The position numbers were made by a program, and so were the translations under genes. Shown here piece by piece: positions 10,831 through 38,012 of a stretch of DNA of 38,836 nt (its first letter is position 1; each line of letters starts with the position of its first letter). The notes under the pieces were generated by a model. That model was given only the letters and a program-made list of their open reading frames with translations. It was not told the origin of the DNA and did not search any database. The DNA comes from Amoebophrya sp. A120 (Eukaryota; Protista; Dinoflagellata), in contig CAJINV010000006.1 of the NCBI GenBank assembly GCA_905178155.1, positions 276,461 to 315,296 on the forward strand, written 5' to 3'.

Positions 10831-11311
10831 CTGGTTCCGGTTTTTTTCTTGCTTCGTAAACTCACTTAAATGTACTTAGTATGACTGTTTTAGTAATCTA
10901 GGACTTGCTGTTTTACATTTCATCACCAAAGCCTTCTGCTAGTATACTCGTGACGGCTCTCCCAAGGTACGTGTTCTGTTGCAGCTGGCATTCTACTTCC
11001 TCCAACGAAGAAGTTGTAAAAAAAGTCTCAGTCTGTATCTGTGGGAATAGTGGGCGAATCAAAAACTAAATCATACTACGGGAAAACTACGACTGACCAG
11101 TGCTTCACCCGAATACACTATGTCCCAACCTAAGGACCTACTGTCTACTGAGTATAAACCACTCGGTCTTACGCATCTGAGTCACAATTTCCGTCGTCCA
11201 CAGTGTGCTTTCAATTTCGACGTCGCCAGTTTGTCGCTCGCACACGATAACGACTGGCAAATATTACTTTGATTCTGAACTTCCTTGGAGTCACGACGTA
11301 GTCCAACTCGA

Positions 11312-13954: not shown

Positions 13955-14205
13955 ACAGCTCTTTGCAAGGCCTGACTGGTTTCAAACTCAGGCATATGTA
14001 GGACTACAAGAAACAAGATCAACGGCACAAAAACGCGACTGCTCGTGCACCAGCTTCAAAGATAAGAAGTGTTTTTAGTCCTCCAAGTGCAAATGATCCC
14101 GAAAAGTCGCACGACGCGAGATCTATGTGCGAAAAATACTTGCATTCCGACTTCGATGGGCACTCATACTTACTGAGTGTGAGTACATCTACATAGTAGC
14201 CATAG

Positions 14206-16885
14206 TCAATAATATAAGTAGAAAGAAATAACTACATCTCGTTTCTCCTCAACGGATTCTCTCCCCCGTTGCCCGAACATTTCTGAGAGTCCGAGAAGCG
14301 CTGGCTTCGGCCGCGACCAATTTAGCTGCTCCACCAAAAGAACCGCGCGCGAGCGCATGAGCCCCTCACTCGTGACGGCTTTCTGAACTTCGTTTTCTAT
14401 GGCGGCAGCGAAGTGAGCCCTGGCGGCATCGTTGGCAAATGTGGTCTCGTTCCACCAAGAAGCCGCCTGCTGCTTGTCTCCGTGCTCAGCGTTGCCACCA
14501 CCATGACTAGCTTCAGTGGAAGCAATTTTGCCCCCGCGGAGCATGCTCAATCCAAGGAAGTTCATCGTTGCTACTGGTTCGGCACCATGCTCCGCCGATT
14601 GATTCCGATTTCCTTGCACAGGATTTCCGCCACGCGGAACAAGGGCAACACCGGCAGCCGTCCTGGCCTGTGGTTGTTGGAGCGAAAGTGAGGCTCTCGA
14701 CGGTCCTGGGCCGCCGTTTCCATCGTCGTCATCGTCGTCACTGGGGTCATCGTCATCATCGTCGTCCCCGAGATAGCCTGGTCCGCCTGTGTGGTATTGA
14801 GATTGGTTTCCAACTACAATATGCACAAATATTACGGCTTGTCAAGTTCAGAAGCAAATCAATGTTAAGTAATCAAGAAGTGACGTGCCGAGGAAAGTGG
14901 TGATCTTGCACCGGCGACTGGAGGTCATCATCTCTTTCAACGCCGCATCTCGAACCAAACGAAGTACCTTCCGTTGCAGAAAACGGCCCCTGCCTTCCTT
15001 CTAGAAGTAGTTCGAGACGGAAAAACAAGCCGTTGCTCGGAGTGGACTGGCGTGTGGCGGACCCGGAGATCGACAAAGGACCGAATTCCCCGTTCGCCCT
15101 TTCACGAACTTCATTGAGGAGGTCACCACCTCTCAGGACAGTGTCGATTGACGGCGGCGCTTCCTTTTTGCCGTGTCCATCCGTGTGCCTCCCCGCTCTG
15201 GCAAAAAGCAGATCTTGCATCCCGACTCGAGTCACGCTCCCAGCTGAGTCGCGAGAAAAGAGCCGCAAGCGAACTCCCCGCAAATATCCTTTCGGGGGCC
15301 GGCGCCCTCTCTGTCGCATCCTGCGCCGCTCCTCCACGTAAGCTTGATACGCTGCTCGAACTGGGGCAAAAATAGAGCGAAGCTCTATATCAGGATGCAG
15401 CGGAAATTCAGTCGCCAGTCGGACGTACTTCGCAAGCTGCGGATTCGCCGGCTGAGTTGTGACTCCGAGCTCAACATAAACGGTACTTGGCAACTGAACC
15501 GGAGCTGCACCTCCTCGCGATCCTCGCGATCCTCCTCCTGAAAAGTCAGCATTTAGGATCAGTATTTTGGCAGAGTAAAATCATACGAAAAAGAAGCTTT
15601 TTTCGATGATTCAAGCACCAGCAACTGTGACACACGTGGATGTCGTAGCATCTCATTTCGATCAAAATAAATAGAAAGAGAAAAGAACTTTTTGGCCACA
15701 ACGAGCCAGAACTGTAAACAAATGTCGCGAGCAATACTTCCTGTTATCGCCTCTTGTTCTGCTGCGCAGCGCGTCTTTGCAAAAGGCAAGTGCTTGTCAA
15801 AGAACTTGGAAGTCAGAAGTTTCTTCCCCTGCTGGCTAAGCCGCACCCGAGGACCATCGGCAGCCTCCTCGTCAGATCCGTCGCGCGCCAAATACATCAA
15901 ATACAATAAACGGCACCGGTGTTCCCGCTTCTCTCTGGGTGAGGCAGCACTCGGTGAAGTCGAGAAATAGTTCTGTTGCCAACGCTCGAAGCCCGTCCCC
16001 GCGCTGTCTCTCGGATCCAATGCTTTCTCTGTTATGTAGAAGATAAGGAAGAATTTTTTGTCGCCTGACGCCCACACTGTCCAACATTGTGATGTGCAAT
16101 CCCATCTGACCCAACTTCTCACACAACCCATGAAGCATCTTCGCTATCTTTGGAATTCGCTGGACGAAACACAACTGCCTGTATGACCTTCCTAGTCTCT
16201 GCTTGCTCAAATCTCGCCATCGAAAAATCTTTTTGGTTTGCAACCTCCACATATTCGACAACAAGAAAAAATTACTTACTGAAATACCGAGACACACGCC
16301 AAGGAGAATCATTTGCTGGCTTTCAACAGGGGGTCTCGGCCGTTCTCCAAACTTGAATATGAGCGTGTGGCATACCGACAGTGCCTCCTTCCACTTGGGG
16401 TTCCGTCCGGCACCATCATGAGATATAGCGCCGCGCAGCAGGTGTTTTTTTACAGGTCCAGTTGGATCTATGTCAAGGACGTCCCAATAGGCTAGCCCTC
16501 CTTGCATCATATCGAGCCGCAGCTGGCCCAATTGATCTCCAAGAACATCCCACAAATCGTCTATCACTTCTTCAGCCTCAGCCCGCGACCTGCTACTGAG
16601 CTTTGCCCTGACATCTGCGACCATGGCCGCAAAGACTGAATTGATCGCCTTGCAACCTGTGCAACCGCACCGGAACTTCTGCTTCACAACCTCTCTCCAC
16701 GGCTTCGCTTTCTTGTCGCCACCGAGCACCACCGGCGAACGGGGGCCTGAGGCTGCAGCAGAAACGAATCGAAGAACATTCGTCGTCGAAGATAATCTGC
16801 TAACCCAAATGCAACAGATGCCAAGGCAGCAACGCCACAACATCCTCCCCGGCGCAGACAGAGAGGCGTTCATTTTCTGCTCCAC
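14206..16885 (-). CDS. Hypothetical multi-exon gene(s), possible N-terminal signal peptide
   Basis: Four consecutive minus ORFs of 190-337 codons with protein-like composition. The first starts at ATG 16885 with a hydrophobic, Cys-rich N-terminus. Exon junctions not resolved. Confidence 0.45.
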
Positions 16886-18274
16886 AATGATGCAATTGCA
16901 CCGCTTCTTCTTCTTCTTGAGTACGTATAAAAAGCTGGAAATCTATGTCCACTTATCGTTACGATCCAGATCGAAATTGAATCCGTTATCAAGCAATAAA
17001 GCGAATATCGCTAGTAGAGGTACTCTACTGGACGTTTTGTAAACTCTTCAGCTACAGTTGTGTAAACACGACAAAGCCGGTGCCCGGTTTTCGAAAAGAG
17101 ACGGAAAGAAATAGATACTGACTGAAGCCTCTGTTGCGCTACTTGTACTCACGCTTAATGAAAAAATCAGCCAACTAAGCCTCGGAAGAGCTGTGCCAAT
17201 TGCAAGTATTTTTGTGATCTTCGGCGTTTGGCGGTGGTATAGCTGCCCAACTCGATTCATTTTATACAAAGCGCCATCGAGGATGGCACAGGGAAGGCAA
17301 AAAGCTCAATGACATGGGCAATCAATAATTTATACAATTTTCATTTACAACGAGACCACGGCACGGAAGTGCTTTCACATTTTAAGATCCTCTGTGTCTG
17401 TAATTCCAGATCTCATCTTGATATCCATATTTGATTGAATTCGGATTGGTATTTACCAGAGTGGAGCTTTCGTTTCTGGAACAATGTTCATTCGGTCAAT
17501 TCTCGTCAACTGGTGAACAAGACCGCTATGGACACGATTTGTAGACAGCCTGCACTATGTACATTTTCAGACACATCAATCTTACTACTGAACCGAGAGT
17601 GGCGGAAATGGAAGTTGATATCCCCGTATACGCAAGAGCAAGACGCAAGGCGTGCTCGCGTACTAGTACATTCAGGGTCGACAATTACACTTAGAAGAGA
17701 TAAAGATGAAAGCGATGAGCCATTCATTAGACAGCCGGCGAAGCATTTTTTTTCAGATCCTGCGCATTGATGTTGGTCCATTGGGTGCTCGTACACCGGA
17801 TAACAATAATCCTTATGTTCACTTACATATTTTTGTGCGCCCATTCATTTTACAGGTAGACTTATTCATTGTAAGTATCTGTGAAAAAGTTGACGAAGTT
17901 CTTCATCATCTTCGTGCAGACAAGCCAAGCACGAGTCGTGCACTGTTCTGTAAAAAGATCAATGACGTTTAAGGCTTATGCAACGCAAGAAAGCATTCTC
18001 AAATTTGATTCTAAGTATAGGTAAATCATACAGCAAAAGTATATACAAGGACGCCAAGTAGCGATTTTCTGGTGTGATGGAAGTGCCAATTACAGCTGTA
18101 ATCAAATCAGTAAGTAGCCAAGTGCGATTTTCTAACTAAGTCTTGCGTTTTCGTGTCCGGCAGCTCACAAGCCTGGAGTATGGCCTCCAGACAGCACGTG
18201 AGCACCTCCATGTCTCTCGACATCGTTTTCACCATGTCCACACCACACACACGGGCACGCACTTTCCGAAGAAG

Positions 18275-20305
18275 CTAACACAAGTCGTCCGCGATTTTGG
18301 ACGGCCGAGCAACGAGAAAGTCTGCTGGTCGGGCAGCTAACATGGTTGGCAACTTTGTTCTCGACGGATTGAGTTTCTTCAAAAACTTGTACGTCGGCGA
18401 GTCTTTCAGCCGTTTTGCGTGACAGCTTCGCCAGTCCCACTGAAACTGATCATACGACCATTGTAGTGCCTTTCCGTCGGAGCCCGACCGCCATTTTTCA
18501 GCGAATTTACGAAAAACGCGCCGGACGTACGGATACCAGGTCTCATCGATCGGGTCCTCCACCATAAAATTATTACGGCTTATCCACGTGTCATCCCAGG
18601 GGTTTAGACAATAACCTTTTTTGTGTTTGGTATGAAATTGAAATTCGAAAGCGCAATAGAAGAAAAGATTGCACCAGAATATTAAGTATGCTTAAAATTT
18701 TTTTTTGCCGATATTGCAAAAACAAACTGCCACAGATTTTTACCGTGCTTCACAGGAAATTCGAGGTTGTACACGTCCATATCCTTTTGAAAAAGGAATT
18801 CTGTGGCCATCGCTAGTCGGCATCTGCTATCCAAAACGTCCTTATTCGGGTTCACAGCCATATCCACCCGCGGCAGCACAGCATCGGGATTGGTCCTGGA
18901 AAACGACAGCGTTTCTGGGGGAGTCCATTTTACCAGCTTGGCCGTGCCCGCTGCACTTGCTCTTCTGCTACGGAAACGAGCTGCAATGGATTGGCGACTC
19001 TTCTTCTCTGGTACATTCTCATGAAAAAACTCTAGCACTTCTCGAAAAAAGGCTCTATCACTTTTGTGACATCCACTGGACAGGGCGGCGGAGCCGTAGG
19101 TTTCCGGAATGATCCACTCGCTACCCAGATCAAACTCATAGGCAGCCGCTGGGCTGCAGGTCTCGCGGCCCATCGTCATAAGCAATCGCACCTTTGATAA
19201 TAAATGCATTTGAAGATGAATCACAGCAAACTTGCATTCCATGTAGTAGTTTAGCGATACTTGTTCTTGTTACGCCCCAAAAAGCAGAATCGATACACAA
19301 GAAAACATCAAAAGCAACGGGTTCAAAAAGTGAAGGCGGTTTATGCTCCTACGGGTTCAAAAAGTAAAGTCCGCTACAAAATGATAGTACAAAGGAAAGT
19401 GTACTGGTACTGCCACAGAGTAAATATAAATCTGGATCAAAACTAACATGACTTACGCTCCACTCTGTCAAGTGTGGTGGAATTGCGTTTTGTGGTCCCT
19501 CGATTTCCTTCTGAAAGTAATGCAAGTAGCTTCTCCCGAGATCGACGTCTTTATTCCAATAGTCCCGAGGCAGGTTCGTTCCCACTTTTTCTCGTAGCAC
19601 CTCGAGGAAAAGGTCTTCACAGCTTTCCGTGCGGTTCGCGAGAGTCCGGTCATCAATGGCTTGAGAAAGTGCCGCCGCAGCAACTTTCCTGCCATTGGCA
19701 TCTTTCTGCGAATGCGATTTACTCGTGTGAAGGAGTGCTCCCGCCTCCGCTGCTGATAAAAAACTCAGAATGCCCTCGTTTTCATTGAGCTTCATGTTTC
19801 CAAACATCATCAGGCCTGGTTCGGCGTTCTTGATGTCGTCGAGCAGCTTGCGTTGCTCTCTCCGACCTGCCTCGTGTTGTTCCTCTTCGTTCCTCACTGT
19901 GGCGGGCGGATGTGAAGCATTGTTCTCGGCTGGGGAGCCGTCACTTCTGCTTCTTTTCGACGGTCTCCGGCCTGCGTCAGGGCTTGCCGATCGAGTACGC
20001 ACAGCATCATACAGCCTCTTCATGTGGGCTCGCACGGTTGCGACAGGGCGATCAGCAAAGGAACTCAGAGTTTTTGCAGCATTCTCAGGCACGTTAGCGA
20101 TTCTTCTCAGCTGCGACGCGCTGCGGTTTTCCCGCTCGTGCTGCAAGCGACTTTCATTCCTGCGAGGCGGTGGAAAACGCGAGTCGAGTTGCGAGCGTGC
20201 GCTTGCATTCAATTCTCCTTTACTGCTGCTGCTGCTGGCACATGTGCCACGAATTGCGCCGAGACACAATAGGTGGATGCCTAGAAGAGTACTGACCGAT
20301 CTCAT
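18275..20305 (-). CDS. Putative secreted protein with a Cys/Trp-rich domain; canonical GT-AG introns; 3' end uncertain
   Basis: Signal-peptide-like start MRSVSTLLGIHLLCLGAIRGTCA. Exons 20305-19457, 19191-18744 and 18615 onward are joined by GTAAGT...AAG and GTAAAA...AAG introns. All three exons align by eye with the 3' exons of the neighbouring kinase gene. Confidence 0.75.
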
Positions 20306-21562
20306 GCTTTGATTTTGATATGCTTCAAGAATACCATCAAAGCAGAATTTTCAAATTTAGATATCTCTTTTTGAATCTGCTACATCAACGACAAGCGTGT
20401 GGGGTATAAATATCTTTCGACGACGAGTCAAGAGCGCAAAGCTATAATCATACATAAACTGATGCTGTTCGGCATTATTTCAATTCTCTTTTATGTGCGA
20501 CGGTATATCAAGGTAGTATAGAGGTACTGGAGAAGATATGACAGCCTCTATCAGTAATCGTAAAATCATCAGTCAAAACCACCCATGTTCGAAATAAAAT
20601 TTTACAAAAATAAGTACATGTTTGCTGAAAACAAAATGGCTGTTGCTAGGTCGCTGATTTTTATGCGCTTTTGATACGAGTCCACGAGGCCTGAAACAGC
20701 TTTTACGGATCCTTCGTGAGCCTAAGGCTTTGGAGTGCAGCACACCATTCGTGGCCGTTCTACTTGTTCAGCAACATGAGACCGCGGAAGAGCCGCACTG
20801 ATAGTCAGACGGCACCGGTCGCCCCAGCAGCGATTGACTTTGAACAAGCTGACGTGCGCAATTCGTGCAAGGAAATCGTGGGTCATGCAATCTGATCTTT
20901 GCGGGCCCCAAGGAATGGCATTTCAAACAATTGCCCTTAGGAGTGGAGCGAATTTTCATCATCCTGTTCTTGCATTCGTTTTGTTAAATAAACGGCTGTG
21001 ACTAACATGGAGCCCAACTATTTCTGGATCAAGAACTTACCAACAATCTTTCATTTCAGAGCCCTTATCCGCGATTGCGACCAAGTAGCTGGGTTTGATG
21101 TGGTAGACAATTGGCCGGGCGTGTGGATAGGCGCCATGATTTTGAGTTGTCACAGGCAGTGCAAATTATTGGGGCTTCAAGACTAGGCACTTTATCTGCT
21201 TCTTTTTATTCGATCTGCATGCCTCGGACCATACTATCGCCTCAACCCAGATCGTCATCTAGTGACGCCAAGAGGAAGATGAGTATACAATTAGAAGTAA
21301 TTCATTGTGTCAGACGTCGCTGTTCCGCCACTCTTGTAGTTGTTCATTCTTTCACACATGGCGCAGCGGGGTTTTATTTTGATTTCTTGGAGGTCCGCCT
21401 CGCCTCTTGTAATTCGTGCTTCCGCCCCCGATGATACGCGGCCTTTGCAGTTCTCGTGCAAAAATACCAATTGCCATTTTGTTCGCTACGCGAAATAACC
21501 AGAAAATTGTCTTTAGAATGCCCCGTACTTTCCTTCTCGGAGCACATCTGATGAAGAAGCCG

Positions 21563-24500
21563 TCAAGACGGACCAGCTGGGAGTTCAATGTCTTGCAGTA
21601 GAGTAGCGAACTTGTCTTTGACGGCCTGGCTCCTGGGATGGAAATTTTCGTACATGTGCTTCGTAGTTCTGTTCCAACGAAACGGGTTTTCATTCTTGCA
21701 CGGAACGGAGCTCGACCGCGCCCTGGTCCAAGTCCAGCGAAAATGGCGATACGACCACTCGGCTCCTCTCGTGTCCGAACTCTGCCGCCAAAAAGACGCT
21801 CTGTTCTTGAAGTCCAGCTGGAAAAGCTCGTGCCATCTGGGATGCACAGCCGACGTTTCGGCAATTTCACCCTCGTTTTGGAGTTGTGAGAGCATGACTT
21901 CGGGCCATTGACGTGATTTCTTGGCCAGCGCCAGCGGCGAGTCGGTATTGAGGCAGTAACCTGTGAGCATTGCAAAAAGAAATTATTTGAAAAAACGTTC
22001 TGACGTACGAAGCTTCTGACGTACGAAGCGATCCATTGCTTCAGCTCCTGAGCTTTTACGCAACTCATTTGAAGCTAGCCAAACGCGAAATACAAAAATT
22101 GCAAAAAAAAAAAACAGCTCTGGACATGAGTGGTCCGCACATAGAGCAGCCATGGAAAAGATTTGAACTCGCGGAGCTTTCATTGGTGTAGCCAATAGTA
22201 ATATTAGAGATTTACTAAGTACCATATGGAACGCTGAAGCGGCGGACGACGAACTCCTCTATCCTGGTGTCCGCTTGAAACAGGTGCTCAGTCACCATAC
22301 CAATACGGCAGCGCCGCTCTCTAGCAGTCCGCTTTTCCTCATCGTCAACATGGACTCCGGCGTTCGACGTGCTACTACCCTGTATGCTGGGGTTGCTGTT
22401 CCTGTAAATCAGAGGATCGTCCCACACCACTACCGAGGATTCGGTCCCATTTTCCCTCCGTTTCTCGTGGAAAAAGTTCCATACCTCTCCGAAAAATTTC
22501 TTGTCTTCGCGAACGCATCCCGAACGCAAGCGTTCCGGATCGTAGACAATGTCTTCATACATGGGCCAATTGAAGTACTCCTTGTTCAGATCCCCTTGCG
22601 GCAGATCAACGTGACAGAAGGGCATCAACGCTAGAATCGTCGCAACCTGGATGAATATAACATCGACGAATGCAGCAGGTGATAGAAGATTGAGATTTAC
22701 TTACTACGGGATTCACTATAAAATATTCTTAGAGGAAACGAGTACCAGAAGAAGAAGAAGATGCTCGTCTCAAATCTCATTACATTTACAATATAGAGTA
22801 AATAATCATATCTATCAAATTTTCTTATACCGCCCAGCGGTCAGCAGGGAAAGCGAGGTCCTCGTCTGCGGCTGTGGCAGGTATCCCTAGTGCCGCGTTC
22901 GCCTCCAGCAGCCTGTCTTGACCGAGGTCCACTTCCTGATCGCAAAAATCACCAGGCTTCGAGTCTCGTCCTATACGTTCGTGAAGAACCTCGAGAAAGA
23001 GATCTTCACAACTTTCTCCGTGCTGCTGCCGTCTCATCAGCGACTTGACGCCTGATTCGTCCGCTTCTGTTTCTTCGTGTTGCTGCCACGCGATTTGGGT
23101 CCCGCTTTCGCCCAGGTGTCTATTGCTCTTTTGCATTTCTGTGCCCCCACCAGTCGTAGTCGTGCTACCGGATAGCCCTGCCGTTCTTGTTGATTCCTGC
23201 ACCGGCGCGACGTACGCCGCGGAACTAGACGAGCTAGTACCGCCTGACATCGGGCGGTTGCCACGATCTTGCCCTGACTCTGTGGCAACTGCGCCGCCAC
23301 CAGCTGGGCGCCAGGGTGCTGAGGAGCTCGAGGAGCCGCCTTCTACGACACGAGACGCAGAATCAGCACCACCACCATCACGACCTGCAGGTGAGCTTTC
23401 ATCGGGGAACTGCGCCTGCTCTGCAGTTTCCGGTCTGTCGTCATCTTCGTCGGAAATCGCTTCCAGCTGTTCGTCGAAGTAGTCATAGCCGTTTGCCACA
23501 GAGCCCGCTTCCAGGCTTGATGATAGTACAGATATTTGTCCGTCGTCTGATGCGTTTTCACCTTCATCGAAACTATCATCTGGGTTTTCACCCTCCCGTG
23601 GAGGCTGTTGGTCTTCGTCTTCTTGTGCGCCGGTTCCGACCACTTCCGATCCTTGTGTGCTCGATGATACATGCCCGCTGTGCTCATTAGCGCGGGCGCC
23701 TTCAGTGTGGCTACCAGTTGCCGTGTGAGGAGTCCCAGGGGGACTCGAGGCATCAGGGAGTGAGGAACCAGGAGCACCTTCCCCTGTCGGATGATTGGCG
23801 ATTCCCGTACGGGCTGAAGCTCCTTGCGCAGAGCCGCTCTGGTTGTCCAGAATCGGATTTGAGGTGGCTGTGCTTGAGCTACTTGAACGTTGGCCCAAAA
23901 GATCGATCCTGCCACTACCCTCAGCTGACGACTGGTCAGTTCCAACAGCAACGCCACAACCCGAATCACTACTCGCAGCCGTCGTGGACTGTAGTTCTGC
24001 ACTGTCGGACGTGCCTGTGCGCGGTCGCATTTGCGCCGTGTCTGTTCCGTCTTGCTGCGGCAACACCTCCTGCTGTGCAACACTTGATGTGGCAGCAGAG
24101 TGGAGAAGTTCTTGGTCTTGCTGCAGTTCGAGATCCTGATCATGAAGGCTGGTAGTTCCCGGCGACTGGTTGCCTTCCTCGCCTTCTCTTGTCCTTTGCT
24201 GTGCCCCCGCTGCGGGGTTTTGTTCAGCACTGCTCATCGTTTGCTCGGTGCTGGGACTACAACCACTCGTACTATCCGTCTGATCAGCACTTTCCGGAGG
24301 ATCAGGCGGTGACGCGGACGGAGCAGATGATGGTGGCTCACGGCTACCCGCTGCTGGTACTTCACCTGCTTGAGCTTCTACAGCATCCGGGTCAGCTGCA
24401 GGACTAGTTGCAGTTGCCGGACTTGCAGTCGAAGCCGCGGTGGTCGGTTCAGCAGGTACTGCCGGCTGAGCCGGCACCGCAGCAGCAGGAACCACTACTG

Positions 24501-27500
24501 GCGCAGTGGCGGAAACGGGGCCTGCAACGTGCGCAGCAGGCCCGGGTGGACCGGCCGGTGCTGGTGCCGGTACTGCTGCAACACCAGGGGTCGGACCTGC
24601 AGGTTTTGGCTTTGGTTTCGCCGGCGCTAGAAACTCCGCTCCATAAACAGGTCCCGGGGGGAACAAGGTCGACAACACTGACGACGGTGAGCTCTGAGAA
24701 GGAGGAGAAAGCGGTTGGACGTGCTGCGGAGGTGGAGCTGTTGTGTCGGCGTGCCCACCTCCCTCAGGACCATCGTTGCCGGGGGCTGTTGGTGGACCGC
24801 TAGGGTTTCCTCCACGTGGATCACCATTGCCACCACCACCACTGCCTGGATCACCATCCCCGTTGAAAATTCTTGTCGGGACCAAAATATTCGGCTTATA
24901 CCCGCCGCCGAAGCCGCCAAACGGATTATACGCATCACCGTCCCCAGACCCCAGCTCTGCTTTTTGTTTGTTCGCCTCGCTAACGTTGCCCATATGCACT
25001 GCTAAGCCGGTAGCAACAGCGAGAAGACAAACGGCGATGATGGTGATAATGATGGTTGAGAGCGAAGAGGCCAAAAAAGCGGCGCAGGGGCCCGCGGAGG
25101 ATGTTGAGGATGAGGAGGGGTCCTCTGTCAGGGGGTGAAATTTGTCTTGTGAAAGGTCGTCGTGGTCATCAACATCTTCACGTGCACAAAAACTTGGTGT
25201 CCTCATCGTGTCGCGCTGCTCTTCATCGTCGAAAGTCCGTGTCGCAGATACCGAGCATGCGGCTTTGTTCCTGGAAGCAGGAGCAAAGTCTCTTCCTGTT
25301 ACATCTTCCGCCTTCTGAGGCTGCTGATGTGACAGAGAGGAATTATCGGCTCCTTCCCTTTCAGGAGGGAGTTCCTGAGCATTTATCTTATCCACCTCTT
25401 CCTCAGAGGATGACACCAGCTCTGGCTCGTGTTCTTCTGGCGGTTCGTTACCACAATCTCGCTTTATGCCGTGTTTCAACATTTTCTCCCCTTCGCAAGC
25501 CGACTTCCCGTCGGCTTTCTGCATTTGATTCGCATCGCCGCCGTGATGTTCATCCTGCGCAACGCCGTCGTCCTGTCGTCGTTTCAATAGCTCCACTTGT
25601 AGTTCCGCACCACCGGTTGTAGTGCCCTCGAGAGCAGTGGTCGAGTTGTAGGAGTAGCTCTCTTGTTTCGCCAAAAGCGGTAGAAACGCCGTTTGATCGA
25701 TGTACTCCTCTTCGTAAATGTCCGATAGCCGGCGGCCCTTCCATTTTATTGTGAGGAAAAATCCCCCCTCCCCATATCGAAAGCGGAGTTTGTGTTGCTG
25801 TATTTGAGTACACAAATCACATCTGTCTTGCTAGAGAGGACTGCAGACCCATATCAAGCCTGAGCAGAGATGCTTTGACTTAGGCGCTTAGCATGAGAAG
25901 CGTCCGTGATGTTGGCTCAACAGCATGACAAACCGCCTCCATAATGGGACGGAAGCTGCTGCCCTTGTCTTCTTGCAACACAAACGTGATTTGTGACCTC
26001 AAATCAGCAACACAAATTTGCGAAAGCCTACCTCTTCAATATGGGGAGGGGGGATTTTTCCTTGCGATACATTTCGTCGTCTTTCCTTTCATGTCTTGTT
26101 CGTTGACTAGATTTTTCGGCGTTTTCAGTAGCAGCTTTTGCTGTCTTTTCTTGGTCGTGGTTCCTCCACGACCTACTTCGCCTGGCTGCAAACTCGCATC
26201 ATACCCAAGATCATCTCCTGGTTATGCAAGAAAAAAACTGTGTAAGTGTAACTTTGTATTGCAGACGTTACAATACAGTTACACTTGTCATGTTGGATGT
26301 GCGTCAGAGGCTATTTTCATACGTGTTTTCGCGTACTAGCTACGCATGACAGGTTTTCTCTGTCATGCAGAGCAAATTTGTGATGCTGTTCCTGCAAAAA
26401 AGTTACACTTACACATTTTTTTCCTTGGATACTGGTGCTGGCGCCTCCAAATACTTCAGCACCGTCTGCGCGTCCCACCGCCTTTCCCACCGCCACCGCA
26501 GCGTGACTTGCAGTAATGATACCAGATGGCCGAAGAGCGCGGCGTCCTGCTCTTCCCACCTGCGGGACCTCGAATACAGAATCCGGACCCGGGAATCCGC
26601 CACGGCGAACTGCGCCCGCATCCCGCAGCCCTCTAAATGCTCGTACGGCGCACGCCCGTACAGCAATTGGTAGAGGATGATCCCCAGGGCCCAAACATCA
26701 GCCGCCGGGCGCATCTTCAAACTCGCCGACCCCTCGTCCGGCTGGTAGAACGCCTCCGGCGGCATGTAGCGCGGCGTGCCGCACTGGCGGTCGCGGGAAA
26801 CGTGGGTTATACCCTCTTCCTTGTTGATCCCCCGCGCGAGGCCGAAGTCATATCAAATGTAAAAATGTCTGGGCCTGGAAGATTGCAAGATGTGTCATGC
26901 TAGTCTGGCATGACTCTGCACTCTGTATTGCGTGGCCACAAACAGCCTCTCTCGCCTGTCATGCAAAAACGCACTTTCTTATGCGGAATGCGCAGCACAG
27001 AGGCACGAAAAAACTTGTCATGCTCGGCGGTGCGTTGCAGTTCACTTATTGTTCACTGATTTGCATCACAAGTTTCCCGACCCAGACATTTTTGCATTTG
27101 ATAAGTCAGAGACCTTCACGATGTTGTCCACGATGAGGAAATTCGCGGGCTTCAGGTCAAAGTGGATCAGCCCGAGACTGTATCAAATGTAAAAATGTCT
27201 CGGTCTGGAAGGTTGCCAGGTTTGTCATGCATATTTTACATGACTCAGGATGTCTGTAATGCATGCTCTAGCATCACATATCTCTAGAGGCCTTCCTGAT
27301 GCCTATCCCGCACGACAAATGCCCTCCCCGCGTAGCACAAACTGGGCGCCTCTTGCTGGTCATGCAATAGAGATTTTTTTAGAGTCCAAAGTTAGCATCA
27401 CAAGTTGCATTCTTCCAGACCCAGACATTTTTACATTTGATAGACTGTGGATGGCCGCGACGCCCGCGACCATGTCGCGCCAGAGATTGCGGATGTCGTA

Positions 27501-30008
27501 GATAGAAAAGATTTCGTAGTTCTTCCGAAGAAAGGAGTGCAGATTGGGTATCGGAGGGGAAAGGAGGTTCTTTGGTTGTTGAGCCAGTTCTTGTTCCAAT
27601 TGAGACAACATTTTCTCATGCTCATCATGTGGTTGTACATGCAAAAATTATGGCAATCGCGATGACAAATTACATGCGCTTGCGGCTGGTCCTGCACGAC
27701 TCCTCCGAGTCAATAAATATGCACAAGGTGCTTCTTGCCGCGCGCATCTTCATGCGTGCCATCTTCTTAATCGCGGTTTAGAATCAGAGAAACCATCTCT
27801 TTCAAACAAACCAACACAATCATTATTCCACCCCATACCACAGTCCGCGAATTCCAGCAAAATGTGGATCACCAAGTCTTTTGGAAAAAATTTCGCTTCG
27901 CCGATCATCTTCACTACCCGCAGCTCGTCCACCGCGTTGTGTCTACCATTCTGGGTACTAGTTCCGGCCTTCGCTGCCCGATTTTTGTCCCGCAAAGCCC
28001 GCAGCCAGTTTACCTCCATGGCGAACGAGCGCATTTGCCTCGCGTCCCGAGCGTAGACGACTTTGAGTGCGTAGCGGCTAACGGATAACGGAGAACCTTG
28101 CTCCTTGTTTCGACTTGCACTGCTGCTTGTTCCATTGGGCTGACCACTTCGCGACGCGCCGTCATGGTTGGAGCTATAGTTGCCCCCACGACTGCCCGAT
28201 CCCGAGGTCGTAGTAGTCGATCCTTCATCTCCCACACAAGTTCGCAGGTCAACGCACTCGAACACCTCCGCCGACCCGCCCTTCCCGATCCGCTTCACAA
28301 CTTCGAGCAATAAAGTCGGTTTGTTGAAGTCCACGTGATGGCTGTCAACCACCTGTTCGCCCATGCAGATGACCATGCCGGGGCCAACGCGGGCAGTGGC
28401 GGTCACAGCGATGTTTTTCCGCTGGATAAACGCAGCCGGGGAGAGTAACGAATCATTTTCCTGGTACGAAGTCCGGCAGTCCTCGTCGTTGAAATACTCT
28501 GGTAGGTCGCTCGGGGAATTGAGAAAAGGGGCGTTGTGGCGCCCGTAGACGGGGATGCTGCAGCCCGCGGAGGGGGGATGTAGATGGTCTTTTTGAGGGG
28601 AAAAACCATTCGCCACTTCTGCGTTCGCAGGACACATCCCTTCCACATCGGGGAGACCACTAGCATGATCCCGGGGAACAAGATCGGTGTCCTTCTGGAC
28701 GTCTTTGCCATCAGGCACAGGAGAAGGATCGACCTTTTCCGCGCAGCGTGGTAATATTATCGGCGTAGAATCCTCCGGGACGACTGGCGCGTTGTTGCGG
28801 CTGTCGGCCTTGATGTCGTGGCTGCACCCTCCAGAGCTGGTAGTGTCACGAGGATTTCTGATATGAAAGCCGCGACGTCCATTTCCATATTTCGCCGCTT
28901 CAGCTACAGGCTGAGCCTCCTCTTGATTCTGGTGAAGACGCGCTGACTCGTCCACATTTCGTTGTAGCTCGGTCCTCTTACCGTTGGATGTACCAACCAC
29001 AGGAGCCACCTTTGGCAAATCCGCCTGGTAGACGAAGTCTTGCAGTCCTTGAGGCTGCTGGTCGTTCTGGCCAGCATTTTGGTGTCGCTCCTGCGGTGCG
29101 GCGAGCTGTGTGTCACCGTTTTCGCAGTCGGCATTGCTTTCGAAACTGGTTTCTCTGTTTTCCAGCCGCCCTGTGTCTGTGCGGGAGTTCTTGTGCTTGT
29201 TGTCGCGATAGGCATCAGTGAGGCCCGCATGGTCCTCAACATCATGTCTGACCCTGGGAGCAGCCACGGAATAAGAGCTCTCGGAGGTGGGCTCTCTGTT
29301 CGGATTGTAGGACGAATATTGGTCAAGGTCATCTCGTGTCGCCGCAGGCCGGACTTCCACTTGGCCGCGGCCAGGGCGCCACGCAGGAGGAGTTCCACCA
29401 CCTACATCGCTTCTTAATATCACATCATCCTCAATCGTACTCGTCGCTGCCGGTCTCCTGGCGTCGTTTTGGTCTTGGTAATACGAGCTTCCATAATTAC
29501 CGGTGGGCAAAGTGGTGTTCACTATGCCGTCGTACGACGTCGCGTTATTTCGTTCATGGGCGCGAGGGTCACGTGGGCCGCCAACCACATCCCGTGCAGC
29601 TTGTTGCCACTCATACGCTGCCTCTTCTCGAACACCTTCTCCCGGTGCATGTTGTCCCACGTCGGCTCCAGCATTTGCGGCCTGTGCATGACAAACTTTC
29701 GGCTCGAAATCGAGTGTGGTCGCAGTATGCAACGCCGACGTTGCTTGCGTGGGAACTGGGGCGACGGGTAAAGGGTAGCTGGGTACGTCATGCTCTTCTT
29801 GGACAAAGCGCGCACGGTTATTTTCGAAGCGTCTATTCGTGTTACCCGGCACTGCTAAGTCGCGGCCGGCGTTAGAAGTAGCTCCACATGGAGGCTGTAT
29901 GCAACCGTGCGGATCTGGATGGTGAGGGTTCAAATTTTTACATTGGTCAGACGGAATCGCGGGTCGTGCGGGATTGTCGTTGAAATGGTGGCTGCGCCGG
30001 TCGCTCAT
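21563..30008 (-). CDS. Mps1/TTK-like protein kinase, continuous in frame with a transmembrane helix, a Pro/Ala/Ser-rich stalk and a Cys/Trp-rich C-terminal domain (about 2200 aa if a single gene)
   Basis: Kinase motifs after removing the elements: IGKGGSAEV, YALK, LEFADC/NLHSFLRK, IHFDLKPANFL, VKVSDFGLA, QCGTPRYMPPEA, DVWALGIILYQLLYGRAPY. Approximate exons: 30008-27840, 27545-27443, 27175-27104, 26845-26432, 26217-26070, 25741-22831, 22646-22223, 21960-21563. The kinase call is strong; the fusion is less certain. Confidence 0.8.
25747..26069. mobile_element. TIR intron element, family C (323 nt)
   Basis: TATTGTGAGGAAAAATCCCCCCTCCCCATAT...ATATGGGGAGGGGGGATTTTTCCTTGCGATA; DR CATTT; join TTK/WKGRR. 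Confidence 0.93.
26223..26431. mobile_element. TIR intron element, family B, reverse orientation (209 nt)
   Basis: TATGCAAGAAAAAAACTGTGTAAGTGTAACTT...AAGTTACACTTACACATTTTTTTCCTTGGATA; DR CTGGT. Confidence 0.93.
26851..27103. mobile_element. TIR intron element, family A (253 nt), inserted in the kinase DFG motif
   Basis: Family A TIRs; DR AGTCA; join TCT GAC T/TC GGC = SDFG. Confidence 0.95.
27181..27442. mobile_element. TIR intron element, family A (262 nt)
   Basis: Family A TIRs; DR GACTG; join AIHS/LGLIHFDLKPAN. Confidence 0.95.
27549..27837. mobile_element. Decayed TIR-type intron in the kinase hinge region
   Basis: Imperfect inverted ends TATCGGAGGGGAA / TTCCACCCCATA and no DR. Removing the core plus 5 nt (294 nt) gives EFADC/NLHSFLRK. 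Confidence 0.55.
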
Positions 30009-31185
30009 AGGGTACAGGTCCAGGTTGCGCCACAGTCTGAGGGAACGCCAGTCACTGGCTTTTAGGCAAAAATAAAGGGGTGTTGCTCCGTTTGTCGATG
30101 TCGATATCCTTGGGCGGGTGTTGCTCCATAACTTATTGTACAACTTTTACTCGAATAAACAAATAGTCACGATCAACCCTTTTCGGCGGATGAGGTACTA
30201 CAACTGCTGCATGCGCAAAAATCCGATCCTCGTGAAGAGGACTGCTCGTCCCGAATGCGTCTTTCAGCCTGTTCTTGCGCCCTTCGGATCTTCTCCACCC
30301 GCGACTACGAGATTGTAAAAACGCCTTCAGACGAGCAACAAGCTTGTGCTTCGTGCGGGTTTGGCGTTGGCGTCTCCTCGAATTGAAGGTAGATACAACT
30401 GCTCCATGCGACGTGTCCATGGGTTCACTTGTACAAATAAACTCCTTTCTAAAGATGAAAAGTCGCAGAGTTTTTATCTATGAATTTGCGTGCTGCTGAA
30501 ACTGAAACCGGTGGGGTGAATGCTGAGTGTCTTACAAAATTTTTTGTGCTCCGGCATCTACTTATCATACGTGGAAAAATGAAACAGTTGAAAGTGAAAG
30601 CGGTTCCTTTTCTATACATTCTCGTCCCGTATATCGATAAAACAATGCTGAGTGACTACAAAAGGGCTTCCAAGTTGTGCTAGTCATCATACACTAAACT
30701 CCAGAAACGTTGCCGGCTGTCAAAGGCAGTCTCATGGAGAAATTATCTAGGGCTATGTCTACGTACTGAAACACTGGTCGCCACTATACCGCAAGCACAA
30801 CTGCCCGTGCCTGAAGCGATGTTGAAAAATGATTTTTTTATCAAAACGCAGAGAGTGCTGAGACGATGCCACGACGACGAGAGGCGATCCGACAAGACGA
30901 CTACATACGATTAGATTTTTGGTACGGAGCGGTTTTAATGTCAGGTTGCGAGAAGAAGCACATGATTTTCACAAGCAAGATCAGTTCTGGCGATGAGAAG
31001 TAAAAAAGGGGTTTTCGATTTTGACTTTTGCGAATTAGTGTTCATCTTGAGAGCCTCGCACTACTAGTGCCATTTCTGCATGCACTATGTTGGAAATGGA
31101 TCACGGTGATGAACTATGTTGGAAATGGATTGTATATGCGTATTGTATTTTTATTTTTTCAGTTGTTTTTTGCAAATTAGTCGTG

Positions 31186-32732
31186 CCTTGAGGCAAATGC
31201 CCAACAACTGCGGAGGGGTAAGTAGCGGAGGGTGTAGACGGCACATGCAGAATCGCAGTGCCGTCCTGGTAGCAGAAGTGTAATAATAGATGGCGTCTGC
31301 TTTCAAAAAGTAAGCACTTTGCACTTTTAGCACTATCCGCAGCTAATTCTGGGTCTAATCGACTGCAACTTGCCCTCCGCCCCCCCTCCGCTAGGCGAGT
31401 GTCAAGACGTGACGCCATCCTGGAAAGCGTTTTATGCGTTGTTGATTTTGTTTCTCGGTTTTTTTGTCGGTTTCGTAAAATTTGAAAACTCAGCATGCTA
31501 TGAGGCACATGCCCCGCAACTGCGGAGGGGTCGCGGAGGGTGTAGACGGCACATGCAGAATCGCAGTGCCGTCCTGGTAACAGGAGTTTAACAATAAATG
31601 CCATCTGTTGTCAAAAAATAAGCACTTTACACTTTTCATACTATCCGCAGCTACCTCTGGGTCTAATCGACTGCAACATGCCCTCCGCCACCCCTCCGCT
31701 AGGCGAAGGTCAAGAGCTGATACCATGCTGAAAAGCTTTTTATTCGTTTTTACTTTTGTTTTTCGCTTTTCTTGCCGGTTTTGCAAGTTTTCAAAATTCA
31801 GCATGCTATGAGGAACATGCCCAGCAACTGCGGAGGGGTAGCGGAGGGTGTAGACGGCACATGCAGAATCGCAGTGCCGTCCTGGTAAGAGAAGTTCAAT
31901 AATAAATGCCATCCGTTGTCAAAAAGTAAGCACTTTACACTTTTCATACTATCCGCAGCTAATTCTGGGTCTAATCGACTGCAACTTGCCCTCCGCCACC
32001 CCTCCGCTAGGCGAGTGTCAAGAGGTGTCACCATGCTGAAAAACTTTTTATGCGTTTTCACTTTTGTTTTTCGCTTTTTTTGCCGGTTTTGCAAGTTTTC
32101 AAAATTCAGCATGCTATGAGGAACATGCCCAGCAACTGCGGACGGGTAGCGGAGGGTGTAGACGGCACATGCAGAATCGCAGTGCCGTCCTGGTAAGAGA
32201 AGTTCAATAATAAATGCCATCTGTTGTCAAAAAATAAGCACTTTACACTTTTCATACTATCCGCAGCTAATTCTGGGTCTAATCGACTGCAACTTGCCCT
32301 CCGCCACCCCTCCGCTCGGCGAGTGGCAAGAGGTGTTACCATGCTGAAAAGCTTTTTATGCGTTTCCACTTTTGTTTTTCGTTTTTTTGTCGGTTTTGCA
32401 TGTTTTCAAAATTCAGCATGCTATGAGGAACATGCCCAGCAACTGCGGAGGGGTAGCGGAGGGTGTAGACGGCACATGCAGAAGCGCAGTGCCGTCCTGG
32501 TAGCAGAAGTGTAATAATAAATGGCATCTGCTTTCAAAAAGTAAGCACTTTGCACTTTTAGTACTATCCGCAGCTAATTCTGGGTATAATCGACTGCAAC
32601 TTGCCCTCCGCCACCCCTCCGCTAGCCAAGTGTCAAGACATGACACCATGCTGAAAAGCTTTTTCTGCGTTTTTGCTTTTGTTTCTCGTTTTTTTTTGTC
32701 GGTTTCGCAAACTTTTAAACTTCAGCATGCTA
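31186..32732. repeat. 308-bp tandem repeat array, 5 copies, each with nested inverted repeats
   Basis: TCAGCATGCTA recurs at 31490, 31798, 32106, 32413 and 32722 (spacing 308, 308, 307, 309). Confidence 0.95.
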
Positions 32733-32788
32733 TACGTATCCTATACGGATTCAAAATCATATACAATCCATTTCCGACACGCATATAC

Positions 32789-32815: not shown

Positions 32816-34936
32816 TGACATTGACCTTGATGTAGTTCGTTGATCTCATCGCAAGTGCAGGTTATCGGAGCAGCAGGTAGTATTTTGAGAATAGGACTGT
32901 GCAGCACATCATGTCCATCTTCCTCCTGCATGCTGCAACGTCGTCGATTTCAAGGGAGGTTCTTTGACCTATTCATACATGGAGTGCAGGAACGATCATG
33001 ATCATGTTGATCCTGCATCCGTAGCCGGACTAAACCGTGTTGCTTCTTCGAGCGGACGAAGCTGTGGTGGGAAGGAGAAGAAGAACTGCAGCAGAGGCGC
33101 GTTTATGTCACAGTTCACAATGGATCATTATCACCTGCTCTTCGGACAAGCACAACTACTCCAAGCGCATTTTGATTGAACCGTCGAGAAGTAGTTGTTT
33201 TGGCATCCTCCTCAACAAGAAGCAGCCGATTCGCAGGTCTCGTTGTCTTCGCCCGTTGCGCCCATGAATTTTTCGCCAAACTCGACCTCCTGTATCAGCA
33301 TCGCCGACAACAGCGCCATTTTCTCATTTTTGTGAGAAGCTAGAAAAACTAACTCGTGGTCCGACAAGGTAGAGGACTTGCACTTCTACTCTACTCTAGG
33401 CCTAACTGCTAAGCGTCAACCACAAATTCAGCAACGCTGCGCTTGTTCCAACACAACATGTTCCAACAGAGAAAGAACTTGTTCTACATGCAATCATCAA
33501 ACACAAACAAGGACAAGGAGAAGAACGGCACAACCCGCGGGCGACGCAAGGAACAGAGCGAGATTTTAGCTTTCGCATCGCAATCATTTTTGTGCACTGG
33601 TCGTTAGAAGCAGAGCAGCCGGCTGCAATTGTAGCCACGCTAGACGACCTAGCCTGCATAGCCGCTGTCACTGTAGGCTAGGTATAGCCTAGCTGCAACG
33701 GCGGCTGGCTGCTGTCACTCAGCACTGCAGACGAGACAGCTGCGGATTCTCACAGTAACTGTCTGCTCGTCTGCATGGTTTTATAATTTTTTTTGTCATC
33801 ATAAGCTTTTGGTACAAGGGATAGAAATTCATTTTCAACTGCTGCTTCCGTGTTTCTTTTTCATCCTCGATCGTTCGAGTTTCTTGCCACAACGCAATTG
33901 ATCGACATAATTGTTCCTTCTGTCGTGATACGGTGGCTACTGACTTGGTGACTTTCAAGTCAAATAAAACTCTCATCGACCACCTACCTGTAGTGCTGGA
34001 TCATGATCGGGGATCGGAATTTGTGATGCTGATTTCGAATATCATAAATAGTTTGTAATGCTATATTTCGAATAGTAATTGACTAGTTTTGAGATGGACA
34101 AAAACCACAAATCTTCGTAGTTCGCGTTTCGTGTTTGTCAGCTTGTAATGCTAGTTCTGCCATGCTACGCACCTCCTCGCGACCTGGGCCACAACCATTG
34201 TTGCGTACCACAGTCGTGGCATGACATGCTTTTTCGTTTTTTAATAGAGTTAATACGTTCCTACTTTTCAATATCCTGTCCACATAACGGCACAGAAATA
34301 TTTTGGTTACACAGGTGAAACAGTTTTCAAAAGATCTTCCCACGATGAAAGGTTTTGTGAGACAGGATTTGATCGCTGTGGAATAAAAGGTTTCAATTTA
34401 CTGTGGATCGTCTATGAATTGTTGGTAAAAATAATCGGAATTTCGTCCTTATTGACTTCTGACAAACATCGACACTTCTTCTATACTAGCTGGTCGTGAA
34501 TGCACCAGATTTCCTACAGATACCATAGACTCAGAGTCGTCGTGAGACTTCCTCGACTTCCGGACCCGTGCTCTCCCGAAGTAGACTTACTCGAAAAGGA
34601 GAGAGGTTTCATGACCAAAGTGCATCTATTGAATGAGTTTGGACTATTAAATACGTGCTGGTAGGCCGCTTTATGATGACAGTCATCTTACGTTAAAAAT
34701 AGAAAAACAAAACAAGTACAGAACTGGCTGAGAAGAAGTTTGTTCACGGAAATAAAGTAAAGTCACTCATGGTAGGAGGTATTCGGCTAGAATTTCAAAT
34801 ATTTGTATTTCAGCAAAATACATAGTAGAAGGGAGAAACCTATTGTACAATTTAGGAGGAAGAACAGAAGAACAAAAGAAGACCACTACTTCATTTTTCC
34901 GCAACTACTACAGTGGTTAAGGAAAGAAACCCTACT

Positions 34937-37748
34937 TTACTTCACCTCCTTCAAAAAGCGGAAGTAGAGTTTCTTAGCCAGCAGCCGGTGCTTCTTTGAC
35001 TTCGCGTACCAGGCTATCCAAGAAAAAAACTGTGTAAGTGTAACTTTCTTTGGCAGACAGCATCACAAATTTGCTCTACATGACAGAGAAAACCTCTCAT
35101 GCGCGGCTTGTACGGGAAAACACACATGAAAAAAGAAGTTCGTGGCTGTGTGGCATGACAGGCGTAACTCTGTTGCATATTCTGCATTACAGAGTTACAC
35201 TTACACAGTAGTTTTTTTCTTGCATACAGGCGGCGTCGTGTCCGTGGTGGCACTTCTGCTCCGGGTCCGCTCCGTAGTGCAGGATTAAGAAGTATCAAGT
35301 GCAAAAATGTCTCGGTCTGGAAGAGTGTAGACTTGTCATGCAGATTTTCCATGACCCATGAGTTCAGGAATGCGGGACTTAGCATGACAGACTCTGCGAG
35401 GTCTCTGCCATGCCTATTCTGCATGAGAAAGTCCGTTCCAACTTGGTCAAAAGTGGACAGCTTTTGGCATTCATGCAACACAGATTTTTGCATGCTTCAG
35501 ATTTGTCATGACAAGTTACAATCTTCCAGACCCAGATATTTTTGCAATTCATAAGAAATGGCACAGGTCTTCCTTCCCCGTTTTCGCAGCGTAGTGCAAA
35601 ACGGTCTGTCCGTTGTTGGGCCACTTGTTGTCCAGTGCTTTCCAGCCCTGGTTGTTGAGCATCTTGAAGCACTTCTTGTACTCCGCCGGCACCAATTCCT
35701 CGGCTTATCCTGTGCAAAAGTCTATCGCATTCGGAGTAATTGCATTTATGCATTACAAATCTCTTTCTCAAGGTAAATCCGCATTACAAATTGAATTTCT
35801 AATGCTGGGCTAATTTGTGATGCAATCGATACTAGTACGATGCTTTTGCATTACATATGGCTTCGTACGGAGACATGATGTCACTCGCCTTGATCACTTT
35901 CTCCTGTATGAGAGTGCACGATTCCCCCCTCATCTTTCGTATTTTTGCATGAACAGCAATACAAACACGACCACAGACACACGTGGAGCTCCCTGTGCAT
36001 GACAAATTCATGCGCCTAGTGTAGATAGTACTGCTTGGGCAGCTTCCGGAATCTGTGATGCATAAACAGTGCCACAGGGAAGCACTTGGATTTGGGATTT
36101 TGCATGAGAAATGAGAACGAGGGGGAGTTGTGCAGTTTCATATCCTGGCCGGCCACGTTGGAAGGCATACCGGATTTCTCGTCCAGCAGGTCATTGCTGT
36201 TCGCGCCGTCATCCAGCTTGCTCTGGGCCTGCGCCTTCTTAGCCGCTTCCAGTTTCTTGCGCAACTATTGTGAGGAAAATTCCCCCCTCCCCATATTGGA
36301 AAGGACATTTGTGATGTCGGATTTGCGTACACAAATCGACTTGTTATGCTAGAAGGCCAAGCGACGCAATTGTGGCCGGAATTGCAAGCAGTTTGTCATG
36401 CTGTTTGCCACTTCCAGTTGCCTCCTGTCACGCTGAAGATGCAAGGCCTTCCCACGCCGGCCAGCACTACAGTCCGCATCTTTTGCCCTCTAGCGTGACA
36501 ACGTAAATTGTGGTAGCAAATCATGCTACACAAATCTCCGTTTTAGTATGGGGAGGAGGGATTTTTCCTTTTGATAGCAACTCCGGATTCTTCTGCAGCT
36601 GGTACTTCCACTCCTTCTATGAGAGTGCACAACTCCCCCTCCCCCTCATTTGTCATGGAAAATACCAACTCCAAGCGCTGCTGCGTGGTACTGTTTGCAT
36701 GACAGATTCCGGAAGCCCAAACAGTACTGCACTGAGCGCATGAACTTGTCATGAACAGGCTCCACAGGTGGGGGTGTCTGTATTGCTGTTCATGCGATAC
36801 AAATGAGGGGGAGGGGGGGGTTGTGCACTGTCATACCTTCGCGAAAACCTGTTCGTTCGCCGGATTCGAAAAATCGATGTCCTCCGCCGGAAAACTGACC
36901 ATCAGGGCCGAGAACTCTTCGAAGAGCGAGTTTTTCTTCTTCGGGTTCGCCAAATCAATGGCCTTCTTGCCGAAATCGTCGATCACGTGCACCTGCTGCT
37001 TGATAATCGTTTCGTCCAGGTTGAGCACTAGGTAGTCGAAGAGAGGCTTGTTATTCTTTTTCGCCGCGTAGTGGAAGAAGGTGCCATATGGATTGCAAAT
37101 ATGTCTGGGTCTGGAAGAGTGGAACTCGTAATGCTGCCTGCGGATTCTAAAAATGTCTGTGTTGCATGAGCAGCCAGAGGAGTCAGCTCTTGGCACGCAG
37201 AGAGGGCATTTCTCATGCGTAATTAGCATCAAGAAGCTCTCAAAAAATCTGTGATGCTAGCATCAGCATCACAGACCTCATGGGTCATGCAAAATGTGCA
37301 TGACAAGCCCCAACTCTTGCAGACCCAGACGTTTTTGCAGTTGATATGCCACCGCCAGTCTTGTGGGCCAACTGCTGCTGGCAATTTTCGTTGTCGAACC
37401 CGAGCTCTTTGCACATCCGGAACATCTTCCCGTAAAAGTCGCACAGACCAAAGTCGTGTTCCTCGTCGTAGATCTTCGTGCCGTCCGATCGGCCCGATTT
37501 GTTGGACGCCATGGACTATGCAATGCAAAAGCATCGTACTCGTCATATAAATGCATTTAGAAATTAGCCCAGTACTACAAATTGAATTTGTAATGCTGAT
37601 TGACCTTGAGAAAGAGATTTGTAATGCCTAAATGCAAGTACTACGAGTACGATACTTTTGCACAGGATATGGACTCCTTGCTCATCATAGACTGCCGCAG
37701 CTGGTCCTTGTTCGGCACCAATTGGATCATGATCTGCCCGTTGCTGAA
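34937..37748 (-). CDS. Ankyrin-repeat protein, 9 exons split by 8 TIR introns; 5' end uncertain
   Basis: Removing each element plus one DR gives 969 nt of continuous frame ending at TAA 34937. It contains GGTFFHYAAKKNNKPLFDYLV...DDFGKKAIDLA and GQTVLHYAAKTGKEDLCHFLILHYGADPEQKCHHGHDAAWYA. Confidence 0.88.
35015..35226. mobile_element. TIR intron element, family B (212 nt)
   Basis: TATCCAAGAAAAAAACTGTGTAAGTGTAACT...AGTTACACTTACACAGTAGTTTTTTTCTTGCATA; DR CAGGC. Confidence 0.93.
35293..35553. mobile_element. TIR intron element, family A (261 nt)
   Basis: Family A TIRs; flanks AGAAG/AGAAA; join LCHF/LILHYGAD. Confidence 0.92.
35706..35857. mobile_element. TIR intron element, family D (152 nt)
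   Basis: TATCCTGTGCAAAAG...CTTTTGCATTACATA; flanks CGGCT/TGGCT. Confidence 0.9.
35907..36142. mobile_element. TIR intron element, family E (236 nt)
   Basis: TATGAGAGTGCACGATTCCCCCTC...GAGGGGGAGTTGTGCAGTTTCATA; DR TCCTG. Confidence 0.92.
36266..36576. mobile_element. TIR intron element, family C (311 nt)
   Basis: TATTGTGAGGAAAATTCCCCCCTCCCCATA...TATGGGGAGGAGGGATTTTTCCTTTTGATA; DR GCAAC. Confidence 0.92.
36618..36835. mobile_element. TIR intron element, family E (218 nt)
   Basis: TATGAGAGTGCACAACTCCCCCTCCCCCTCATTTGT...ACAAATGAGGGGGAGGGGGGGGTTGTGCACTGTCATA; DR CCTTC. Confidence 0.93.
37087..37346. mobile_element. TIR intron element, family A (260 nt)
   Basis: Family A TIR variants; DR TGCCA; join TGGG/TFFHYAAK. 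Confidence 0.92.
37517..37669. mobile_element. TIR intron element, family D, reverse orientation (153 nt)
   Basis: TATGCAATGCAAAAGCATCGTACTCGT...ACGAGTACGATACTTTTGCACAGGATA; DR TGGAC. Confidence 0.93.
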
Positions 37749-38012
37749 TATGCATTGCAAACATGTCTGGGTCCTCTGGAAGGATGCAACTTGTCATGCT
37801 AAATCCGAATCGTGCAAGAATCTGTGTTGCATGAGTGCCAAAAGCTGCGCACTTTTGACCAAAGTGAGAGGGAGTTTATCATGCAGGACAGACATGATAG
37901 AGATCTCACAAGATCTGTCATGCTAGGTCCTGCATTCCAACCCTCGTGCGTCATGGAAAACCTGCATGACAAACTTGCACGCTTCCAGACCCAGACATTT
38001 TTGCATTTGATA
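37749..38012. mobile_element. Family A element with unrelated flanks, possibly a hybrid (264 nt)
   Basis: Both TIRs are present, but the flanks CTGAA/TTCTT are not a DR. Confidence 0.85.

Follow-up and report, generated by a model that had tools for sequence, protein, structure and literature searches.

Within the 38,836-nt stretch of Amoebophrya sp. A120 DNA analysed here (the window), the catalytic core of a TTK-like kinase gene is interrupted twice. We assign a probability of about 83% to the reading that these interruptions are two separate insertions of inverted-repeat DNA transposons, each of which likely serves as a non-canonical intron that leaves the RNA along with one copy of its flanking direct repeat.

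Two inverted-repeat elements in the kinase core

The element that comes first in the transcript (element 2, 27181-27442, 262 nt) lies just before the catalytic loop, and the other (element 1, 26851-27103, 253 nt), a member of the same family, sits in the S-D-F codons at the DFG motif. Both are non-autonomous and bounded by TAT...ATA terminal inverted repeats with 0-1 mismatch over the first 15 nt, and all four ends carry TAT, seven looser bases and at least three A residues. Perfect 5-bp direct repeats flank them: GACTG on the forward strand for element 2 (left copy 27176-27180, right copy 27443-27447) and AGTCA on the forward strand for element 1 (left copy 26846-26850, right copy 27104-27108), the latter covering the Asp codon of DFG. 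The hairpin stems scored z = -8.05 for element 2 and z = -6.11 for element 1 (0/200 shuffles in each case). On the transcribed strand, each of the three frames of both elements contains stops, and neither element has coding capacity.

The two elements are 63% identical, and each has a closer copy elsewhere in the window, which holds eight related copies of the family, 58-83% alike. The idea that one element arose as a local copy of the other was rejected on these figures, which point to two separate insertion events. At each event, a transposase acting in trans would have cut a 5-bp staggered target, as the direct repeats suggest, giving rise to the 5-bp target duplication.

The facing inverted ends of the two elements are 77 nt apart; subtracting one repeat copy leaves a micro-exon of 72 nt net, or 24 residues, running from HFDLKPAN to the D of DFG (27104-27180, reverse strand). 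When each element was dropped together with one repeat copy, the kinase frame was open and both HFDLKPAN and DFG were restored; when both repeats, or either element, were kept, the frame stopped within 36-68 codons of position 27539. The original prediction of a 72-nt exon between two family A elements, with catalytic motifs that are intact once the elements are removed in silico, was thus borne out by the inverted ends, the perfect 5-bp repeats and the restored frame.

Eight cut positions are equivalent for element 2 and seven for element 1, and GT-AG, GC-AG and AT-AC ends are absent among all 8 + 7 of them. Those for element 1 range from the Ser codon preceding DFG to inside the Phe codon; the earlier statement that this element splits the Phe codon therefore describes a possible cut, at only one of seven equivalent positions between which DNA cannot tell. 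The micro-exon aligns to residues 127-149 of human TTK, and residue 149 of the same PDB chain is also where the match of the following exon begins, which indicates that the Asp codon is the duplicated one and that nothing has been gained or lost.

Within 30 nt of the ends of element 1, none of the GT/GC-AG pairs that keep the frame preserves DFG, so a working allele needs an exact, non-canonical cut. For element 2, two GT-AG pairs could excise the element, leaving 6 or 8 extra residues. Canonical GT-AG removal was accordingly rejected for element 1 and disfavoured for element 2. Canonical spliceosomal introns and introners of the Micromonas and Aureococcus type have GT/GC-AG or AT-AC ends, whereas the window elements offer no such cut that would preserve the protein.

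A TTK-like kinase gene and its relatives

The gene is read on the reverse strand. Its long first exon (27840-30146) comprises a low-complexity N-terminus and the kinase N-lobe, in which the Gly loop, the catalytic Lys and the helix C Glu were recognized from the translation. An inferred third intron in the kinase hinge (approximately 27546-27839, reverse strand), with short inverted ends, no 5-bp repeat and non-GT-AG boundaries, separates it from the exon for helices D and E of the kinase domain (27443-27545), which is matched by the A120 protein P0002. Past element 2, the micro-exon and element 1 lies the exon with DFG, the activation loop, PPE and the rest of the C-lobe (26432-26850; Pfam Pkinase, E 1.9e-14). 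Two further TAT...ATA elements, each of another family and with a perfect 5-bp repeat, occupy 26223-26431, at the end of the kinase domain, and 25747-26069. The last exon (22825-25746) encodes a hydrophobic stretch (a predicted membrane helix) and a long low-complexity tail.

Once the five introns are removed, an open frame of 1986 codons runs from 30146 to 22825. The ends of the hinge intron were chosen by alignment logic: four of the five boundary pairs tried preserve the frame, and in-frame stops lie inside the intron. The original prediction had omitted this intron, which is needed for the kinase domain, as well as the two elements just downstream. The five introns are confined to 737 of the 5961 coding bases, in or just past the kinase domain (P ~0.001 if uniform, calculated post hoc), and the long low-complexity exons are free of introns.

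Human TTK provided the best PDB matches to the exon at 26432-26850 (E 2.5e-11), and the top 22 PDB rows were TTK for both exons searched. The catalytic loop is non-RD and ends DLKPANFL. The nearest protein is the Amoebophrya sp. A120 gene model P0002 (98% over 113 columns), which reads across both joints; two substitutions, a 10-residue gap and a different end set it apart from the window, which is thus not identical to the A120 record. The next-closest proteins are A25 and AT5.2 records. The 10 residues missing from P0002 follow the PPE motif, and its sequence diverges past approximately residue 116; this gap and divergence may mark other introns, at sites that the window lacks.

A 37-row tree contained 5 A120, 3 A25 and 4 AT5 rows, constituting an expanded paralog set. 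The window grouped firmly only with the A120 protein (99/87), and the fork between Amoebophrya-type and Mps1-type rows was weak (45/23). Hydropathy peaked at 2.86 in the window and reached at least 2.3 in 7 of 11 relatives, versus at most 1.5 in 4/4 Mps1-group rows. The product is a TTK-like kinase, likely anchored in a membrane by the predicted helix after the kinase domain.

Mps1/TTK is a soluble checkpoint kinase that is present as a single copy and lacks a membrane helix. It is the best solved-structure match of both exons of the window kinase, which differs in being one of many paralogs, most of which have a strongly hydrophobic stretch past the kinase domain. The designation "Mps1-like" in the original prediction suits the catalytic domain rather than the whole gene, which is no clear Mps1 orthologue. 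When the 798-codon first exon was used in a word-indexed protein search, no matches were returned, a metagenome scan with the A120 protein gave 77 loci at 33-49% identity and no close relative, and a weak literature search for an Amoebophrya Mps1/TTK family found no mention of Amoebophrya among the matches listed.

Since paralogs exist and a membrane helix is predicted, the kinase cannot be assumed to be essential. Recent MITE insertions that are unspliced or poorly spliced here could thus have left a dead or weak allele covered by paralogs, and as A120 has four or more other members of the family, such an allele could be tolerated. We consider this unlikely, because five introns lie in one gene without a stop in 1986 codons, and because at most two residue differences to A120 are found over 113 columns.

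Joined and element-bearing haplotypes in public reads

Joined forms, lacking the elements, and element-bearing forms both occur in public reads. The RNA nature of run X1 is a guess, the kind of run X2 is not on record, and X4-X6 are raw RNA runs; among the runs listed by a search for matching sequence, none is on record as RNA. X4-X6 gave matches only at element ends from other loci, with zero exon cover. X7 yielded one contig, of another kinase, and X8 no contig.

In X1, a 196-nt contig skips 267 nt, corresponding to element 2 plus one repeat copy. At its loose end the sequence carries on into the exon with DFG, such that both joints are exactly as predicted and both elements are absent. This joined contig represents a haplotype 90-95% alike to the window, and its letters also stand joined in X2. 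Several haplotypes are present in X2; one, identical to the window, runs into element 2 at a depth of 34 with 0 differences at the joint. At the element 2 site, the joined forms differ from the window in their letters. Two joined forms were found at the element 1 site, one with the X1 letters and one equal to the window for 11 letters. RNA of the window's own haplotype across either joint was not seen in these runs.

This pattern suits mixed DNA containing element-free alleles no less than it suits spliced RNA, and the reconstructed joined sequence is real and ancestral. As element-free haplotypes of the kinase gene exist, the insertions are probably young, and their age would permit population study. 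Both the existence of these haplotypes and the lack of RNA from the window's haplotype in the runs would also suit a dead or weak allele. The junction peptide VSDFGLAR would be informative only in a clonal strain carrying element 1.

The mixture in X2, which may be DNA, also bears on whether the elements leave the DNA rather than the RNA, through programmed or frequent precise excision: element-bearing and joined forms occur together there, and one joined form equals the window for 11 letters past the element 1 joint. Nevertheless, silent differences of their own mark the joined forms at the element 2 site, as expected of separate alleles, and the published class to which we assign the elements was defined by comparing RNA with genomic DNA (PMC7789003, accessible text), which makes excision from DNA very improbable. 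That an assembly pasted repeats into an uninterrupted gene is scarcely conceivable; no X2 contig spans an end of element 1, yet both elements are flanked by perfect 5-bp duplications specific to their sites, 18 such elements occur in the window, and the X2 contig that crosses the element 2 joint does so without differences (X2 may be the source sample).

The sequence differences between haplotypes speak to selection. Sixteen of the 19 readable ones are synonymous, the other three lying at the start of the N-lobe; for the X1 contig, all eight listed differences are silent (P about 1e-5 to 3e-5 under neutrality; 10/15 on aligned parts not included). This pattern indicates purifying selection since the haplotypes split and not strictly since the insertions, which the silent divergence may predate. 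The earlier claim that removal is base-precise and the gene under selection is probably right, although not for the reason stated, namely the intact motifs. Intact motifs prove nothing alone, because any recent insertion with a target duplication, even a knock-out, leaves them. Nor are they the best internal evidence, as had been proposed; a gene elsewhere in the window that is open for 384 codons once ten elements are removed is stronger.

An 85-nt X2 contig (depth 21) has four more exon letters, within 27176-27194, ahead of an element-like start. This single contig, for which one of four differences was listed, possibly reflects an independent insertion in another haplotype, 4 nt from the element 2 site.

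Elements across the window and predicted competition between neighbours

A scan of the window for inverted ends with a 5-bp repeat found 18 elements, 14 of them with perfect repeats; the same scan on 100 shuffles gave a mean of 0.01 elements, none perfect. A GT/GC-AG cut is possible in only one of 16 elements with perfect repeats, which suggests guidance by the symmetric inverted ends. Recognition would then proceed through these ends and be functional in either orientation. The impression that two elements 72 nt apart are unusual was rejected, as 9 of the 22 inter-element gaps measure at most 81 nt. The elements cluster in three genes of the window, and 7022-25746 is empty save for one weak match in a loose scan.

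The ten-element gene (34900-38468) encodes ankyrin repeats (Pfam Ank matches), and its elements belong to several families and lie in both orientations. Without all ten, 384 codons form an open frame; keeping any one leads to an earlier stop. That this neighbour is likewise intact argues against a dead or weak kinase allele, as does the genome-wide RNA support reported for the class in A120 (PMC7789003, accessible text).

Several copies depart from the common form. The family A element at 37749-38012, in the ankyrin gene, is an exception to the "element plus 5" rule, as it lacks a 5-bp direct repeat; its removal keeps the frame only with zero or a multiple of three extra bases. At approximately 38464-38649 lies a one-armed family A element without a second inverted end, whose one retained end agrees with the far end of the element at 38065, with 0 mismatch in 16 nt. 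In the elements at 35293-35553 and 35706-35857, the two repeat copies differ by one base, and the base kept in the mRNA would locate the cut. The window also contains tandem arrays at 31168-32752 and 3-631, with units of ~308 nt and 97 nt, and a 128-nt coding segment common to two genes (3762-3889 and 38338-38465, 91%).

The introners that Farhat et al. 2021 described in A120 have ends of TAT, 7 nt and AAA, inverted repeats of 8-20 nt or more, 3-5 nt direct repeats over the boundaries and a length of ~240 nt, in 29,850 copies (PMC7789003). A120 has 66,565 RNA-supported introns, 65% of them non-canonical; the class shows no fixed splice dinucleotides, U1 RNA was not found, and a hairpin was proposed to bring the exon ends together (PMC7789003). 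The window elements agree with the A120 and A25 introners in their ends, 5-nt repeat, length of ~250 nt, hairpin, membership of a repeated family and non-canonical ends, and no difference of kind was found against the accessible text of that report, which mentions neither presence/absence between closely related haplotypes nor pairing of adjacent elements (PMC7789003). Compared by description only, they also resemble A120 TIR-DNA families reported by Gozashti et al. 2025 (fam12, 331 copies, 252-260 nt; fam100, 256-261 nt) in length, terminal inverted repeats, unclassified superfamily and mostly non-conventional splice sites; genes with tens of introner introns are described in the same work (PMC12130899, accessible text). 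The element pair thus belongs to a published introner class with tens of thousands of copies in A120, and one more pair is ordinary. Removal would take place at the RNA level, each element being lost with one repeat copy, as reported for the class.

Euglenid nonconventional introns and MITE-derived introns of Fritillaria borealis are likewise transposon-derived, with junction repeats and with inverted ends that draw the two boundaries close to each other (PMC11282704). The euglenid introns differ in their CAG/CTG pairing and excision as circles, and those of F. borealis in ends that are mostly AG-AC/AG-AT, whereas the window elements have TAT/ATA ends and no preferred dinucleotide (PMC11282704, accessible text). 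Presence/absence of introners and parallel gains are reported in Micromonas and fungi (PMC4540971, PMC4457414). For Amoebophrya introners, a search of the literature outside subscription papers found no report of exon skipping or polymorphism.

The proximity of elements 2 and 1 is predicted to create a pairing conflict. In energy models of the complete pre-mRNA segment, the outer ends (5' of element 2, 3' of element 1) form one stem, and the two inner ends form another that encloses the exon. This cross-pairing beats self-pairing by 14-22 kcal/mol in 6/6 settings, with pair probabilities of 0.85-1.0 for cross pairs versus 0.0 for own pairs. According to these models, equilibrium hairpin folding alone would not define the intron ends here. 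In prefix folding, the own stem of element 2 remained best until ~300 nt past its end. Because the whole pre-mRNA is predicted to cross-pair, we favour, on the basis of these energy models, a route in which the exon would be kept either by element 2 folding and committing during transcription or by a check for matching direct repeats.

Cross-pairing could also spoil removal, as a dead or weak allele would entail, or leave both elements spliced while often looping out the micro-exon. The latter would regularly yield a kinase that is in frame but lacks the catalytic loop, and possibly also a small exon circle, as the micro-exon is a multiple of three and skipping it keeps the frame; inverted Alus are reported to cause loop-out skipping in hominoids (PMC13019027, accessible text). 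We nonetheless regard frequent looping-out as doubtful: no skip joint was listed for the four runs checked, at very thin cover, the outer ends bear different direct repeats, and the stem of element 2 can form first.

A wider hypothesis, which we hold to be rather improbable, is that transposon-end pairing defines Amoebophrya introns and that neighbouring ends compete. Pairing between elements 2 and 1 would then give a kinase isoform without the catalytic loop and an exon circle, unless co-transcriptional removal or direct-repeat matching intervened, at a kinase site that is hit repeatedly and is polymorphic. If this were true, the locus would reveal the recognition rule of the splicing system. 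With no canonical exit from element 1 that keeps DFG, an exon that can be skipped in frame and a wrong pairing predicted at equilibrium, the locus is a test case that could separate recognition by the hairpin alone from co-transcriptional or repeat-matching recognition.

Cross-pairing was favoured in two of eight neighbour element pairs tested. The family C copies at 35907-36142 and 36618-36835 in the ankyrin gene, which are mutually inverted, are predicted to cross-pair by 87 kcal/mol; skipping between them would delete 154 nt and put a gene that is otherwise intact out of frame, which further argues against frequent looping-out.
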